A DNA stretch of 64,000 bases from an uncultured cyanobacterium (GTDB lineage Bacteria; Cyanobacteriota; Cyanobacteriia; Pseudanabaenales; Pseudanabaenaceae), in contig OY969811.1 in the NCBI GenBank assembly GCA_963703315.1, positions 4,000,001 to 4,064,000 of the forward strand, read 5' to 3'. Shown here piece after piece: positions 5,149 to 64,000 of the stretch. The first letter of the stretch is position 1. Each line of letters opens with the position of its first letter. Made by a program: the position numbers and the translations under genes. Under the pieces are notes generated by a model. It was not told the DNA's origin and made no database searches. It was given only the letters and a program-made list of their open reading frames with translations.

Positions 5149-7489
5149 GAGTATGTCCCATTCGTTTAGGGATTGCCTCATTAAAGTTTTTGGTAATTTG
5201 CGATAGAGATACAGCGATCGCTTGTTCTCCATTTACCGCAATCTCCAAATCACTACCCGCATCGCTGACGCTACCGATATATTGCCAAGAATTGCCTAGC
5301 TGATTATTAAGATAAGCTTCCCATGCAGAGCGATCGCTTGCCTTAACAGAAACAACAATCCGACTTGCGCCTTCTCCAAAGAGAAGTTGGGTAATGTGTA
5401 AATTTTCAGGAAGAGTTATTTGAATCTTGGCGGTGAGTTTGCCAGAGATACTTGATTCGGCGATCGCTACAGCTAGACCACCTTCCGCACAATCATGGGC
5501 AGATTGAATCAAGCCTTGGGCAATTCCTTGACGACAGGCAAGCTGCACTTTGCGCTCCAATTCAAAATCAACGGGTTGGGGTCTGCCTGTAACTTCACCA
5601 ATAACTGAGGCAAGATATTCAGAACCTGCGAGACTAGCGCGATCGCTACCCAATAAATAAATCGCATCACCCACATTTTGCCAAGCCTGACCAACGACCT
5701 TAGTTACATCTTCAACTAAGCCGACCATGCCGATTACAGGCGTAGGATAGATTGGTTGGGCATTGCCCTCAGCGTCAATAGTTTCGTTATAGAGCGAGAC
5801 ATTACCACCCGTCACAGGAGTGGATAATTCCCGACAAGCATCAGCGATGCCGCGACAGGCTTCGTGCAGTTGCCAATAACCGATCGCATTTTCAGGACTA
5901 CCAAAGTTCAAGTTATCCGTAACAGAAATAGGATCGGAACCAACACAGGAGAGATTTCTAGCAGCTTCCGCAACCGCTAACTTTGCGCCTTCATAGGGAT
6001 CAAGATAGACATAGCGAGCATTACAGTCAACCGTAGCGGCAACCCCCGCAAGGGCATCAATTTGGCATTGAGCGGAACTTAACTCTCCAGCACCAAAACC
6101 TTGACTGCGTAACCGAATTACCGCCGCGTCCGCACCACCGGGGAAAAGCACCGTATTATTCTGAACTTGATGATCGTACTGGCGATAGACCCATGCTTTG
6201 GAGGCGATCGCTGGGGTATCAAGTAATTTCAATAGCGCATCATTGGGATTAATCACAGGGAAAGAGGCGATCGCGGTTTTCTCATCCCATGCCCAAGCTT
6301 GCTTGGCATAGTCGGGAGTGTCAGCTAACTGACGATGATAAATCGGTGTATTATCGGCAAGCGCCGTTGCAGGAATCTCTGCCGCAATTTCGCCATGCCA
6401 GAGAATACGGACAATTGGCTCTTCCAGAACTTCACCCGCCACCACCGCATGAAGTCCCCACCGTTCAAAAATTTCAATTAGTTCTGCTTCTCTCCCTTTA
6501 TGAGCCACAAATAACATCCGTTCCTGTGATTCCGAAAGGAGATACTCATAGGGAGTCATCCCTGTTTCCCGCGCAGGAATTTTGTCCAAATCGAGAGATA
6601 CACCCACGCCGCCCTTCGCTGCCATTTCCGAAGTGGAACAGGTTAAACCTGCTGCGCCCATGTCTTGCGCGGCAACAACTGCACCAGTTTTGAAAGCTTC
6701 TAAACAAGCTTCCACTAAAGACTTCTCTAAGAATGGATCGCCAACCTGTACCGCTGAGCGATTCTGTTCCGATTTGCCAGAAATTTCTGTGCTAGCAAAA
6801 CTTGCGCCTTTGATGCCATCGCGCCCAGTGGTCGAACCCACATAAATCACAGGGTTTCCCACACCCGCAGCACCCGATTTGACGATTTCTTTGGTTTCCA
6901 TAATCCCGATTGCCATCGCATTGACTAGCGGATTACGGTTATAGGCTTTATCAAAATACACTTCGCCGCCAACGGTGGGAACGCCGATACAGTTGCCATA
7001 GCCAGCGATGCCGTTAACAATGCCGTTAACCCGACTACGCACCCAAGGATCGGACAGTTCGCCAAACCTTAGTGAATTCAAAATCGCCACGGGACGCGCT
7101 CCCATCGTGAAAATATCACGCAAAATGCCACCCACACCTGTCGCTGCGCCTTGGTATGGCTCTACTGCCGAAGGACGGTTATGGCTTTCAATCTTAAAAC
7201 TAATGGCAATATCATCGGTAATCTTGACTACGCCCGCATTTTCCCCCGGTCCCACCAGAATGCGATCGCCTGTGGTCGGAAATTGCTTCAGCAGGGGACG
7301 CGAATTTTTGTAGCAGCAATGCTCTGACCACATCACGCCAAACATCCCCAATTCGGCTTTGTTTGGTTCACGATTGAGGCGATCGCAAATCATTTGATAT
7401 TCATCGAGCGTCAAACCCTCAGATTTAATTTCGGCTGGGGAAAATTTGGGTGTGGTACTGGCGGTCATATTTAAAGCGGTGACTATCAT
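5144..7489 (-). CDS. purL: Phosphoribosylformylglycinamidine synthase subunit PurL
   Basis: [11 protein letters not shown], KIESHNx[22 protein letters not shown] and GGNVSLYNE motifs. The start may be the second Met (MTAST). Confidence 0.97.
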
Positions 7490-7616
7490 TGGCTTGCAAC
7501 AATCATCTTATCGCAACACCATATTTTTTTGTCGTAGTGCGGTAGTCAGCTTCTTTGCAGATTTTGGCTCATCCGTTAAGATGTAAACAATAACCCGCAC
7601 TTAAGTTAAAAATGTC

Positions 7617-8831
7617 ATGTCCGATCGCCTGAAATTTTTCCGCAGGCTGATGTCAGCTTTTGAAGGCACTTCAAATCCTCAACGTGCCGTTGAACGAGGA
7701 TTTTATGTCAACTTGCCAAATAGTCCTGTAGAAGTGATCACCCGTAGAATTGAGCTTAGTCCTTCTTCGGTTCATTTATTATTTGGCGGTATTGGATCGG
7801 GGAAAACAACGCAGTTGCTACTAACACAAAAACATTTAAATGAGTTAGAAGATATAAAAGCTATTTATGTGGATGTTAGTCTTGTCACCGATATTTCCAA
7901 TCTTCAGTCTAGTGCTTTAATTGTGATTGCTGGACTGGAGCTAATAAAAATATTAGAGAAAATTGATAACCCTGAAATAGAAAAATCCAAACAAACAATT
8001 AAAAATGCTGCATATGGATACAGCGAGACAAAAATCGTTAACACGGCTTTTTCCTCGGTAGTTGCTAATCTGGTTAGTGGGTCTGTAAATACTTTTCACA
8101 AAGGATTATTGTCCTCAGAAAAGCAGGAAAATAAAGAGTTAATTTTAAAAGCTTTTGTTGAATTAAAAAAAGCTGCTAAAGCAATCATAAACAAAGAAAT
8201 TATTTTTCTTTTCGATAGTCTAGATAGATTGAGTAACTCAGAAATCTTTGTTGATTCAGTTCTTGACGATGTAATTGAAATTAACAATAGTGAAGTTGGA
8301 TCTGTTCTCGTAGGTTCTATTGCAACAATGTATGAAGAGAGAGATAGTATTGCAGAAGTTGTAGGACATTCTCACTTCTTGCCATATCTTGATATATTTG
8401 AAAATGTTGCCGCCCGTAAAGTTTTTACAGATATTTTTGCCATTCGAGATCCTGAAAAATTTATTAGTCTAGAGGCAAGAAATATACTAATGTATAGTTC
8501 TGGAGGGGTTTTACGCGATCTAATGTCTCTTTGCCAAGCTGCAATTGAAGAAGCTTATGTAGATGGTTCAGATCAAATTACAGAACAACACGCGAATCAA
8601 GCAATTTTAGCTATACGCCGTTCAAAACTAATTGGTTTAACCGATTCAAGCATAAATGTGCTACGTAAAGTTATGACTGAAAAATCATTTTCTCCACGGA
8701 CATCTGAGGATTTTGAACTATTGCTAACAGGACATATCTTGGAGTATAGACATCCAAGACAACGGTTTGTTGTTCATCCGATATTAGCTCCACTTATCAA
8801 AAATATGGCTGTGAGTGTAGCTAATGGATAA
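7617..8831 (+). CDS. P-loop (AAA/STAND-like) ATPase
   Basis: Walker A GGIGSGKTT, Walker B IFLFDSLDR, SGGVLRDL and C-terminal VHPIL. Same motif order as 62127-63419. Confidence 0.85.
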   Translation: MSDRLKFFRRLMSAFEGTSNPQRAVERGFYVNLPNSPVEVITRRIELSPSSVHLLFGGIGSGKTTQLLLTQKHLNELEDIKAIYVDVSLVTDISNLQSSALIVIAGLELIKILEKIDNPEIEKSKQTIKNAAYGYSETKIVNTAFSSVVANLVSGSVNTFHKGLLSSEKQENKELILKAFVELKKAAKAIINKEIIFLFDSLDRLSNSEIFVDSVLDDVIEINNSEVGSVLVGSIATMYEERDSIAEVVGHSHFLPYLDIFENVAARKVFTDIFAIRDPEKFISLEARNILMYSSGGVLRDLMSLCQAAIEEAYVDGSDQITEQHANQAILAIRRSKLIGLTDSSINVLRKVMTEKSFSPRTSEDFELLLTGHILEYRHPRQRFVVHPILAPLIKNMAVSVANG

Positions 8832-9423
8832 ACTATCCTCTGTAGATGAATTATTACAAAAAATTGAACTGCGACCGCCAGATAGTAATAGCTGGATGGT
8901 TCTAGTCGCTATGCCTGATGACATACAATCAACAATTGATGAGTTACAAGACAGTGTTGAGATTTTTGGTGAATGTGAAACAGTAACTATTTCAGGAGAA
9001 TCTGGAGCAAGAAATCTAATTAAATGTATTCAAGAAGCACCTCAAGAATACTTTTTACTACATCAACTTGACTCTTGGGATAATAACGAATGGAAAATTT
9101 TTGATGCTTTTAGAACTCAATTAGATAAAAATACAAATGGGGGCTTGGTTGTACTTTCCGATCAATCAAGCCATTTAATGTTTAGTAATGCTCCTCATTT
9201 TGTTAGCTTTGTGGGTTCACGATTATATTATTTGGATAACAATGCAAATGTACTCACTTCTGAAGAATGTGAGAAACGCTTGTCTGCATTACAAGAATGG
9301 TCTGGTCAAACCAATGAAGAAATAATAGCTTTGGCTGAGAATCGTCAACTACCAACTGACCCAGAGTATGGAGAATGGTTAATCTTACTTGATCGAGGTG
9401 ACTTGCTTGAAAGGCAAAAATAA
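8824..9423 (+). CDS. Hypothetical protein, probable inactive-NTPase partner of the upstream ATPase
   Basis: Overlaps the ATPase stop. FDAFRTQL..LVVLS..LMFSNAPHFVSF resembles the ANRVREEF..MVLWLS..LTREASDLANW segment of the gene at 63431. Confidence 0.65.
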   Translation: MDKLSSVDELLQKIELRPPDSNSWMVLVAMPDDIQSTIDELQDSVEIFGECETVTISGESGARNLIKCIQEAPQEYFLLHQLDSWDNNEWKIFDAFRTQLDKNTNGGLVVLSDQSSHLMFSNAPHFVSFVGSRLYYLDNNANVLTSEECEKRLSALQEWSGQTNEEIIALAENRQLPTDPEYGEWLILLDRGDLLERQK

Positions 9424-9973
9424 TTGGGAGAAGATCTGTAAAGAAATCCAAGAGCGTTCTTTAAACCAGACACTACTAGAAGTAGAAAGTGCGGAGAAAT
9501 TAAGAAAGAAAATTTTTAAATGTTTGAATGATGCCACCAATGAAAAGATATTGAATACGAATCTAAGTGAGATTCATCAGTTGCTTAAGATAAGTAATGG
9601 TCAAAAAGGACATTATGAAATTTTTGGTGGAGGCAAGAACTTTGGACGTATTCAAGACATTCCTCATTTCAAACTTCATAATGGCTGCTGGTTTGATTTT
9701 GCAATCACTGTCGATGAAACTGGCAAATCTTCCCAAATCGTGGCATTTGACTTTGAAATAAGGTTCCCTCAAAAAGAAAGTGAGACTAAAGTTTCATTTT
9801 TAAGAATTGACCTCAATCGACCAGAGCATAACAACGATGAACGAAATATACGTTTTCATCTCCATCCCAGCAATGACGATATTATGATTCATAGTCCACC
9901 AATGTCACCTCTCGAAATTCTGCATATGTTTCTGTATGGCATGAACATTCCAGACAAACCACGCACTTCTTAA
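9389..9973 (+). CDS. Hypothetical protein with RxD..H..HLH motif (putative effector); start may be the TTG at 9407
   Basis: 194-aa ORF overlapping the previous gene; FLRIDLNRPEHNNDERNIRFHLHP...PPMSPLEIL. Confidence 0.65.
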   Translation: MIEVTCLKGKNNWEKICKEIQERSLNQTLLEVESAEKLRKKIFKCLNDATNEKILNTNLSEIHQLLKISNGQKGHYEIFGGGKNFGRIQDIPHFKLHNGCWFDFAITVDETGKSSQIVAFDFEIRFPQKESETKVSFLRIDLNRPEHNNDERNIRFHLHPSNDDIMIHSPPMSPLEILHMFLYGMNIPDKPRTS

Positions 9974-10069
9974 AACATCCTCAACTCTGCTTTGTTGGGT
10001 TCACGATTTAGGTGATCGCAAATTATCTGATCACGATCTTATCGCATTGAACCCGCCTAAAATGATTTC

Positions 10070-10675
10070 ATGTTGTCCAAAAGGAGATCAACTTTTATGA
10101 CCTTACAACTACTTGATCAAAGCGCGATCGCCTCACACTTTAAATTCACAACCCAGCAATATCACCTCATGCATGAAGCTGGCGTTTTTAAAGATGGCGA
10201 TCGCCTTGAGTTGATTAATGGAGAAATTAAAACTATGTCCCCCATTGGCAGAAAACACGTTGCTTGCATTATTCGCCTCGACAAACTGATCCAACAAAAA
10301 CTAGGCGATCGCGTGATGGTTTCAACGCAAAATTCAATTCGCTTAAATGAGCATTCAGAACCCCAGCCCGATCTTGCGATCTTGAAATTTCGTGATGATT
10401 TTTATGAAGCAGGGTTGCCAACACCAGAGGATATTTTGTTAATTATTGAAGTTGCGGATAGTTCACTTGATTATGACCGTGATGTGAAAGCACCTCTGTA
10501 TGCAGTGGCGGGGATTCCTGAAATGTGGTTATTTGATGTCAACAAAAAAGCGATCGCAGGATATTCTCAACCATCAGCATTAGGTTACAAACAAATCCAT
10601 CGCTACGATGAAGGCGATAGGTTATCGATGCTTGCTTTTCCTGATGTTACTTTCAATTGGAATGAGCTTTTCTAG
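10070..10675 (+). CDS. Uma2-family endonuclease (likely start at 10097)
   Basis: RLELINGEI..MSP, SEPQPD, LIIEVADSSL.YDR..K..LYA..GIPE.W. Confidence 0.92.
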   Translation: MLSKRRSTFMTLQLLDQSAIASHFKFTTQQYHLMHEAGVFKDGDRLELINGEIKTMSPIGRKHVACIIRLDKLIQQKLGDRVMVSTQNSIRLNEHSEPQPDLAILKFRDDFYEAGLPTPEDILLIIEVADSSLDYDRDVKAPLYAVAGIPEMWLFDVNKKAIAGYSQPSALGYKQIHRYDEGDRLSMLAFPDVTFNWNELF

Positions 10676-62126: not shown

Positions 62127-63419
62127 ATGGATCTTGAACTTTCGCGATTTTATAAGGCTTGTAACCCGACACATCCCCTTGACTCCAGTAATGAAGAGGA
62201 TCGCAGCTATTATGTCGATCTCTCAACGGTGCGAGGCGAAAAGCTGATTCAGAGTTTGTCGCGCAAGATTGTCAAGATTTCGCCCGATGAGTCCACCTGT
62301 CAGTTATTTACAGGACATATCGGCTGTGGCAAATCGACGGAGCTTTTGCGGCTGAAGCATGAACTAACCGAGAAAAAATTTCATGTGGCGTATTTTGAAT
62401 GCGATCGCCAGTTAGAACTAAGTGATGTCGATGCGAGTGATATTTTATTAGCGATCGCAGGACAGCTTAGCAATGGTTTAGAAAAGGAAGGGATTAATAT
62501 TATTCCTGAATACTTCAAAAAGCTATTTGGCGAACTGAAGGATATCTTACAAACAAAGCTTGATTTGAGCGCAAATTTCAAGCTGTCAGTGGGGATTGCC
62601 GAGATTACGGCTCAAGCTAAGAATAGTCCGTCATTGCGGCGACAAATGCGCGAACGGTTAGAGTCACGCACCAATAGCATTATCAATTCGATCAATAGAG
62701 AATTACTGGCTCCTGCTAAGGAAAAGCTGAAAGCTAATGGCATGAATGGCTTAGTCGTGATTGTGGATAATCTTGATCGCATTGAAAATCGTATCGATCT
62801 GAAGGAGCAGTCAAGGGCTGGATATTTGTTTGTCGAACGGGGCGATCAGTTGCGGGGGCTAGATTGCCATGTGGTGTATACAGTTCCGTTGTTGCTGACT
62901 TTTTCCAACGATGCGGCGATCGTGCAGAGTCGATTTGGAACCGATATTAAAACTTTGCCGATGGTTCCTGCGCGGTTGCAGGATGGCAGTGAGTGCGAGG
63001 CAGGAATGGCGCTACTCAGACAAATTGTGATGGCGAGAGCGTTCCCAAAGGTTAATTCCGTGCAACGGATTAATAGTGAATTTGTGAATAAAGTATTTGA
63101 TACTCCACAAACTCTCGATCGCCTATGTCAAGCTAGTGGTGGTCATGTTCGCAATTTATTTCGCTTACTGTACGGTTGCTTAGAGCAAGATGATCCACCG
63201 ATTACGGCTAAATTAGTCGAGAGTATCATCGCTAAGGAACGGAATAAGATGTTGAAGACGATTGATGAAAAAGAATTAGAATTAATCCAGAAAGTACGGC
63301 AGGATAAGCGGGTACGTGGCGAGTCGGAGTATCAGACTCTAATCAAGAGCCAGTTTGTGTTTGAGTACGAGTATCAGGGTAATAGTTGGTTTGATGTGAA
63401 TCCAATTTTGGATGACTAG
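62127..63419 (+). CDS. P-loop (AAA/STAND-like) ATPase
   Basis: LFTGHIGCGKSTEL, VIVDNLDR, SGGHVRNL and WFDVNPIL motifs. Confidence 0.88.
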   Translation: MDLELSRFYKACNPTHPLDSSNEEDRSYYVDLSTVRGEKLIQSLSRKIVKISPDESTCQLFTGHIGCGKSTELLRLKHELTEKKFHVAYFECDRQLELSDVDASDILLAIAGQLSNGLEKEGINIIPEYFKKLFGELKDILQTKLDLSANFKLSVGIAEITAQAKNSPSLRRQMRERLESRTNSIINSINRELLAPAKEKLKANGMNGLVVIVDNLDRIENRIDLKEQSRAGYLFVERGDQLRGLDCHVVYTVPLLLTFSNDAAIVQSRFGTDIKTLPMVPARLQDGSECEAGMALLRQIVMARAFPKVNSVQRINSEFVNKVFDTPQTLDRLCQASGGHVRNLFRLLYGCLEQDDPPITAKLVESIIAKERNKMLKTIDEKELELIQKVRQDKRVRGESEYQTLIKSQFVFEYEYQGNSWFDVNPILDD

Positions 63420-63430
63420 AGGAAAGTTCT

Positions 63431-64000
63431 ATGAGCGATCGCACCGATATAATTGCAGAAAATAATCGCGATGCCCTGCGGCGATTGATGCGAATTGTGA
63501 CGCGATCGCAAGGGTTTTCTTTGTCGATCGCTTTGTGTAACTATCGCGTATTGCAGGAGCGCGTATTGCATGACTTGCGATCGCACCTAGCGGAGCATGA
63601 CTTACCAGAAACTGCGATCGCCATACTTGAACTGGAACCTGATGCGAAGACTTTACTTGCGCCAATTCAGAAATTAATGGCAGAGGTGCATAAACTTCCA
63701 TCTGAACAGAAACCCAAGGTGTTAATGGTTTTGGGATTGGATGCAGTTATAGAAATCGAAGCAGTTCTCAAATCGGCAAATCGGGTAAGAGAAGAATTTG
63801 CCAATTGCTTAGAATTTCCGATGGTGTTGTGGTTGAGCGATCGCACTCAGGACATTCTCACTCGCGAGGCTAGTGATCTGGCGAATTGGACGACAGCAGG
63901 GGCGATCGAGCTTCAGCTTGAGGCTGTAGAACTAAAAGTATTAGTGCAAGATTCTTTAAATGCGATATTTAATCGCTATTTACAACCTCAAGGCTTAGGC
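63431..64000 (+). CDS. Partner of the ATPase, N-terminal inactive-NTPase-like domain (partial)
   Basis: Not in the ORF track. The frame is open to the window end: MSDRTDIIAENNRDALRRL..SQGFSLSIALCNY..LMVLGLD..ANRVREEF..FPMVLWL..EASDLANW. Confidence 0.8.
   Translation, partial: MSDRTDIIAENNRDALRRLMRIVTRSQGFSLSIALCNYRVLQERVLHDLRSHLAEHDLPETAIAILELEPDAKTLLAPIQKLMAEVHKLPSEQKPKVLMVLGLDAVIEIEAVLKSANRVREEFANCLEFPMVLWLSDRTQDILTREASDLANWTTAGAIELQLEAVELKVLVQDSLNAIFNRYLQPQGLG

Follow-up and report, generated by a model that had tools for sequence, protein, structure and literature searches.

A candidate ATPase-gated toxin-antitoxin cassette in an exchangeable slot beside purL of a cyanobacterium

The stretch of DNA that we analyzed (the window, 64,000 nucleotides from an uncultured cyanobacterium of the Pseudanabaenaceae) contains three overlapping open reading frames on the plus strand beside purL, referred to herein as genes 1 to 3 and collectively as the cassette (Table 1). 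The nearest named relatives are Pseudanabaena. An earlier description made from the letters alone, the sequence-only reading, had noted this arrangement together with an AT-rich composition and the absence of GCGATCGC, all of which we confirmed. The GC content of the cassette is 35.6% compared with 42.2% for the genome, with 3.0% of equal windows being equally low, and GCGATCGC is absent from 7379 to 10124; 4.2% of 20000 random 2357-base windows also lack it. Both features are unusual, not extreme. The most likely start of gene 3 is the TTG at 9407, which is also the database call (P0001), rather than 9389, and GAGGT lies immediately 5′ of this TTG.

Table 1. Positions in the window of the cassette, its flanking repeats, and the paralogous gene pair used for comparison
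Feature	Positions	Strand	Description
Left direct-repeat copy	7340..7398	+	Part of the purL 5′ end (purL on − strand)
Gene 1	7617..8831	+	404 aa P-loop ATPase, STAND/KAP-like type
Walker A of gene 1	7785..7808	+	GGIGSGKT, G57-T64
Gene 2	8824..9423	+	199 aa; two parts; overlaps gene 1
Gene 2 residues 1-140	8824..9243	+	AAA+/P-loop fold lacking Walker A and B; inactive NTPase domain
Gene 2 residues 141-199	9244..9423	+	Three-helix tail resembling antitoxin TumA; predicted gene 3 binding
Gene 3	9407..9973	+	188 aa; remote TumE/DUF2290-like putative toxin; 17-base overlap with gene 2
Putative active-site motif of gene 3	9803..9865	+	R133-x-D135 ... H141 ... R149-x-H151-x-H153
Right direct-repeat copy	9973..10031	+	Degenerate copy of the purL 5′ end; 86% identity, E 2e-13
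Paralogous ATPase, common two-gene form	62127..63419	+	Outside the cassette, comparison only
Start of 1616-aa partner of the 62127 ATPase	63431..64000	+	N-terminal domain belongs to one family with gene 2 residues 1-140; comparison only

Gene 1 has the features of an active NTPase, namely intact Walker A and Walker B (FLFDSLD) motifs and a conserved arginine. Residues G57, G60, G62, and K63 of Walker A are invariant in 37 rows, and the protein also carries the invariant R277, SGG..RD, and a C-terminal HP. Against Pfam, gene 1 reached the cut-off for KAP_NTPase (20.1 bits versus 20) and fell below that for ATPase_2, with no match to iSTAND or nSTAND2; neither Pfam nor PADLOC found a helicase domain. 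With a gene 1 profile, seven genomic paralogues were retrieved (E 1e-12 or better); one of them is the ATPase at 62127, of which gene 1 had been called a diverged relative. This relationship was borne out by BLASTP (26% over 117 aa, E 2e-6) and by the profile (E 4e-20 over positions 26-394). Among the paralogues with neighbors listed, five precede the gene of a long partner, and these partners share an N-terminal domain. This family of active/inactive ATPase pairs may be that of Npun2340/2341 of Leipe et al. 2004. Elsewhere in the genome (G000:C1 1219333-1223315), a paralogous ATPase domain lies inside a 1026-aa protein that is followed by a 299-aa protein with, by eye, an HNH-like Cys/His motif, possibly a further defense pair.

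Gene 2 consists of two parts. Residues 1-140 align over 128 columns with a profile of seven long-partner N-terminal domains (HHalign 86%, score 41.8 versus at most 17.7 for 25 column shuffles), while BLASTP of gene 2 against the partner at 63431 gave no match. This part keeps an NTPase fold in which the nucleotide motifs are eroded, so the proposal that an active ATPase is paired with an inactive partner agrees with the intact motifs of gene 1 and with the fold of gene 2, which lacks Walker A and B. The further claim that gene 2 resembles only the N-terminal domain of the longer partner stands for residues 1-140; the word only is wrong because residues 141-199 form a separate, TumA-like domain. 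The tail is also the better conserved part, with a mean column identity of 62% versus 44% for residues 1-140.

The likeness of the tail to TumA is remote. Upon HHalign comparison with TumA, the tail gave 93.6% and a score of 41.8 versus at most 15.3 for 25 shuffles. When a profile of the tail was run against 6071 ORFs of the genome, the best three non-self matches (E 0.0016-0.0077, the next being 0.72) all lay directly upstream of TumE genes, which had themselves been located by a separate search. NCBIfam TumA was matched by 12/12 tested TumE partners of this kind, two of them above the cut-off. The tail itself did not match NF045776 (TumA), TumA was absent among the best 25 of 46 families for 79 members of the gene 2 family, and no gene 2 member reached the Pfam or NCBIfam cut-off for TumA.

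Related arrangements were seen at other loci. Stand-alone genes of 162-176 aa for the inactive domain occur at L203 (2967-3455), L204 (3054-3548), L205 (3106-3636), and L206 (2903-3391), with no adjoining ATPase or effector. In Limnofasciculus baicalensis (L047, 8230-10011), genes 1 and 2 form one 593-aa frame, a single case that would be consistent with a physical partnership of the two proteins.

The His motif that had been pointed out in gene 3 is present and strongly conserved: no variation occurs at R133, D135, R149, H151, or H153 across 79 paired rows, and in 111 diverse rows R133, H151, and H153 remain invariant with D135 and R149 nearly so. The predicted fold places helices over an antiparallel sheet (pLDDT 94), and a fold search with this model returned no clear solved relative, as is likewise reported for TumE in the accessible text of PMC10584680. 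For gene 3, the Atlas gives DUF2290 at 0.91 (a family assigned to 17% of members) and TumE at 0.83, a lead only. HHalign against DUF2290 gave 55% over 49 columns (score 35 versus at most 23 for shuffles), against TumE 13% (score 25.7 versus at most 16.3), and against DUF6978 a null result. With a profile of the C-terminal part of gene 3, one TumE was matched at E 1.5e-7, and among 636 ORFs that included 33 TumE or DUF2290 proteins, 15 of the best 20 were TumE or DUF2290; the corresponding HHalign comparison gave 58%.

The genome's own TumE genes ranked nowhere near the top with the full gene 3 profile and stayed at noise level with the C-terminal profile. Neither gene 3 nor any of 111 members of its family matched PF20126 or NF045777 (TumE), the best DUF2290 value among the 111 members was E 0.046 with Pfam (PF10053) and 0.009 with PADLOC, both below cut-off, and a PF10053 search of this genome found no match. 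The earlier suggestion of a DUF2290-like third gene holds at HHalign 55%, below every family cut-off; judged from its motif gene 3 is TumE/DUF2290-like, and by cut-off it is a member of neither family. The genome carries five ordinary TumE genes (G000:C1 41739, 1058891, 2588312, 4437784, and 4439049), two of which lie about 1 kb apart on opposite strands, and cross-talk of these with the cassette is possible.

Searching genome_contigs with a gene 3 profile gave 60 loci, all labeled as cyanobacterial. At least 58 metagenome loci, which represent a sample, were located with a profile built from distant gene 3 relatives. Of these 118 loci, four had no gene 3 ORF and 45 had fewer than 1900 bases upstream, leaving 69. 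The co-occurrence check supports the proposed three-gene module, as the order 1-2-3 was found in 46/48 genome loci and 21/21 metagenome loci, or 67/69 overall. No further gene is common to more than 8/60 genome loci, and the flanks are unrelated. Pairwise identities of the three genes correlate with one another (Spearman 0.87-0.92 over 1596 pairs, which are not independent). Twelve metagenome loci that we checked have 58-74% GC, and the module therefore extends well outside cyanobacteria; look-alike clusters in the Atlas are listed under Myxococcota and Acidobacteriota. Within the genus, gene 3 is present in 14/36 genomes and gene 2 in 13 of the same 36. Across the phylum, gene 3 is found in 10/401 genomes and full-length gene 2 in 7/401, always adjoining gene 3.

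Losses were surveyed at the 87 loci that offer 700 bases of upstream sequence and cover gene 3 in full (31/118 left out). The antitoxin-like gene 2 lies directly upstream of the toxin-like gene 3 and overlaps it, and both were intact at 74/87 loci. Gene 2 was intact with gene 3 broken at 5/87, both were broken at 4/87, and gene 2 was split or frameshifted with the tail kept at 2/87. The tail was missing with most of gene 3 readable at the remaining two loci, L057 and L105. At L057, the start of gene 3 is lost. At L105 (1341-2387 of a 2.7-kb metagenome contig), gene 2 stops cleanly after its N-terminal domain and is followed by a gene 3 with intact motif, which makes this locus a real exception to the pairing of tail and gene 3. 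Two further genomes, one of them at a contig end, keep gene 1 and the front of gene 2 with no gene 3 found nearby. Because gene 3 itself served to identify the loci, this survey under-counts clean losses of that gene.

We modeled gene 3 in complex with gene 2 residues 140-199, using its own alignment for each. The model scored 0.81, and the best of three controls scored 0.01; the mark for this score is reached by 116/157 solved complexes and 2/215 mismatched pairs and is only approximate when each protein has its own alignment. Contacts agreed by at least 87% between runs, and partner pLDDT was at least 87. On the gene 2 side the contacts involve E184 and L188, both invariant, and on the gene 3 side D135, H141, and R149, with H151 and H153 outside the confident interface residues. 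No solved complex like this one was found by fold or sequence search. The model thus predicts that the TumA-like tail docks on gene 3 beside the His motif.

As for the history of the cassette, the branches of a gene 3 tree (51 rows) mostly follow host family, with groups for Pseudanabaenaceae, Nostocales, Coleofasciculaceae, Chamaesiphon, and Acaryochloridaceae. Neither gene 1 nor gene 3 turned up in a plasmid search, and gene 3 had no match in a phage search either. The family-wise tree and the lack of plasmid and phage matches indicate an old, often lost cyanobacterial resident and no fresh import, and do not support the view that the genes were recently acquired.

Locally, the cassette is mobile and occupies an exchangeable slot. 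It is flanked by copies of the purL 5′ end, the right one beginning at the stop codon of gene 3, and longer copies occur at L016, L019, and L025. In two genomes (G007 and G019), purL directly abuts a Uma2 gene and the cassette is absent. At least two copies of the purL 5′ stretch were found in 17/48 genomes of the genus, and in six of ten regions (six genomes) another ATPase cassette lies between purL copies. This other cassette comprises a ParA-like plus ATPase fusion of 923-937 aa with a KGGVGR motif, accompanied by an ORF of 141-188 aa whose product is, by eye, presumably HEPN-like; a literature term search for KGGVGR found nothing. It gave partial PADLOC matches to PDC-M28. A type IIG restriction-modification gene adjoins the purL remnant in G022. 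The duplicated purL 5′ end carries a GCGATCGC site. Repeats of purL surround exchangeable cassettes in Pseudanabaena at L193-L197, L199, and L201, and at L186 and L192 (G006 and G030) the right end of the slot is marked by an additional, truncated purL start frame of 61-66 aa. Over all cassette loci, only 8/58 have any flanking direct repeat. The 133 neighbors at 34 loci are mostly housekeeping genes, and restriction, HEPN, or helicase-HNH genes flank 5/34 loci, a count made without a control set. The evidence for a wider defense island is weak.

Comparison with known systems shows parts of known kinds in a wiring that we did not find described. TumE is a validated translation-blocking toxin neutralized by TumA, and its RNase activity is unproven as far as the accessible text of PMC10584680 goes. 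The cassette resembles TumE-TumA (PF20126; NF045777, NF045776) in having an antitoxin-like gene directly upstream of and overlapping a toxin-like gene, a TumA-like tail, the motif order R-x-D ... H ... H-x-H, and an effector that, like TumE, has no confident solved fold. It differs in that the antitoxin part is fused behind an inactive NTPase domain, an ATPase is present as a third gene, gene 3 is about 60 residues longer than TumE, and both gene 3 and the tail fall under the family cut-offs. DUF2290 (PF10053) is, according to the parts of PMC9122126 available to us, a component of a helicase-linked anti-T7 system; this shares with the cassette the pairing of such a protein, to which gene 3 is remotely related, with an ATP-driven enzyme, whereas the cassette has a STAND/KAP-like ATPase and an antitoxin-like gene in place of a superfamily 1 helicase.

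Pairs of active and inactive STAND NTPases (nSTAND2 two-gene, iSTAND, and MNS Npun2340/2341) are described as predicted conflict systems in the available portion of PMC8195603. Like them, the cassette has an active NTPase gene followed by an eroded-NTPase gene with a variable C-terminal module, and this genome has seven paralogous ATPases. Unlike them, it has an antitoxin-like tail as its fused module and a separate third gene for the effector, and it contains no MoxR-vWA pair. PARIS, in which AriA releases AriB on a trigger (PMC11464382, as far as accessible), is alike in proposed logic, with its ATPase scaffold keeping a translation-blocking toxin bound until a foreign protein is sensed. It is an analogy and not a relative, being composed of an ABC ATPase and a TOPRIM nuclease unrelated to the cassette proteins and having no separate antitoxin adaptor; PADLOC and Pfam gave no match to ABC-type AriA or TOPRIM AriB in the cassette. 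PADLOC (version of 2023) matched the cassette to no system, in keeping with its proposal as an unnamed one. A term search of the accessible supplements of PMC8195603 did not find DUF2290 or DUF6516, and the available parts of PMC7159879, PMC10952713, and the Hachiman preprint (10.1101/2024.02.29.582594) do not describe the cassette, nor did a literature search find its wiring described, subscription papers and bioRxiv supplements being outside the reach of that search.

Because the tail of gene 2 is TumA-like and gene 3 is related to TumE, a gated toxin-antitoxin pair is the better interpretation of the module, an architecture that we consider probable whatever its trigger. In the mechanism that we propose, gene 3 would be a TumE/DUF2290-like toxin, probably a translation-blocking RNase, and gene 2 would keep it quiet via its tail, as suggested by homology and by the predicted binding. 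The inactive NTPase domain of gene 2 and the active ATPase of gene 1 may form a hetero-oligomer, since the active-plus-inactive gene pairing is constant in the family. A trigger, probably a phage product given the place of DUF2290 in an anti-T7 system (PMC9122126, in its accessible part), would then cause ATP-driven remodeling of gene 2 and free the toxin, by analogy with PARIS. We give roughly even chances to this whole chain, an ATPase-gated, phage-triggered toxin-antitoxin switch for abortive-infection defense. More tentatively, we propose a hitherto undescribed kind of immune switch: the inactive subunit of a STAND-like ATPase pair would have acquired a type II antitoxin, which an ATPase sensor would strip from a TumE-type toxin on phage infection.

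The same architecture could also serve other ends than phage defense, with the ATPase reading the energy or stress state or the cassette being a plain addiction module in the chromosome. Such a role would suit the mostly housekeeping flanks, the long family-level inheritance, and the commonness of stand-alone TumE-TumA pairs (20/121 genomes, and five TumE in this genome), for which an anti-phage role is not shown in the available text of PMC10584680. Plain addiction, however, needs no dedicated ATPase, the related DUF2290 belongs to an anti-T7 system in what is accessible of PMC9122126, and the patchy presence in genus and phylum with frequent loss of gene 3 suits a conditional benefit, so that we regard this account as unlikely, though it deserves weight. 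A docking adaptor is a rather unlikely reading of the tail: it would recruit gene 3, inert alone, to the ATPase to make an active nuclease machine, modeled on motor-plus-nuclease systems such as helicase + DUF2290. That the gene 3 profile is nearer DUF2290 than TumE, that gene 3 is intact without a tail at L105, and that H151 and H153 lie outside the confident interface would all fit. On the other hand, no relatives of the tail could be detected other than antitoxins of this same toxin lineage, the predicted contact includes D135, H141, and R149, and gene 3 is truncated or gone in the other tail-less loci. Finally, it is very improbable that the cassette is a non-conflict accessory module, a signaling or housekeeping helper whose TumA and TumE resemblances are chance or ancient relics, as two separate genes point to the antitoxin and the toxin of a single family and keep the gene order of that family, the polar residues are invariant, and the distribution is patchy and exchangeable.

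The proposed immune switch would link toxin-antitoxin pairs with STAND-type immune ATPases. It puts forward a putative catalytic motif that TumE would share with DUF2290, the chemistry of both being unproven in the accessible parts of PMC10584680 and PMC9122126, and it draws attention to an exchangeable slot for cassettes beside purL in Pseudanabaena. Cyanobacterial active/inactive ATPase pairs usually have large, hard-to-study partners, and because this cassette spans 2.35 kb with a built-in readout, toxicity, the role of the inactive domain is directly testable. If the switch is true, TumE, DUF2290, and gene 3 would be one nuclease superfamily, and the cassette would provide a first lead to the role of DUF2290 in its anti-T7 system and to the purpose of the active-plus-inactive ATPase pairs that are common in cyanobacteria.
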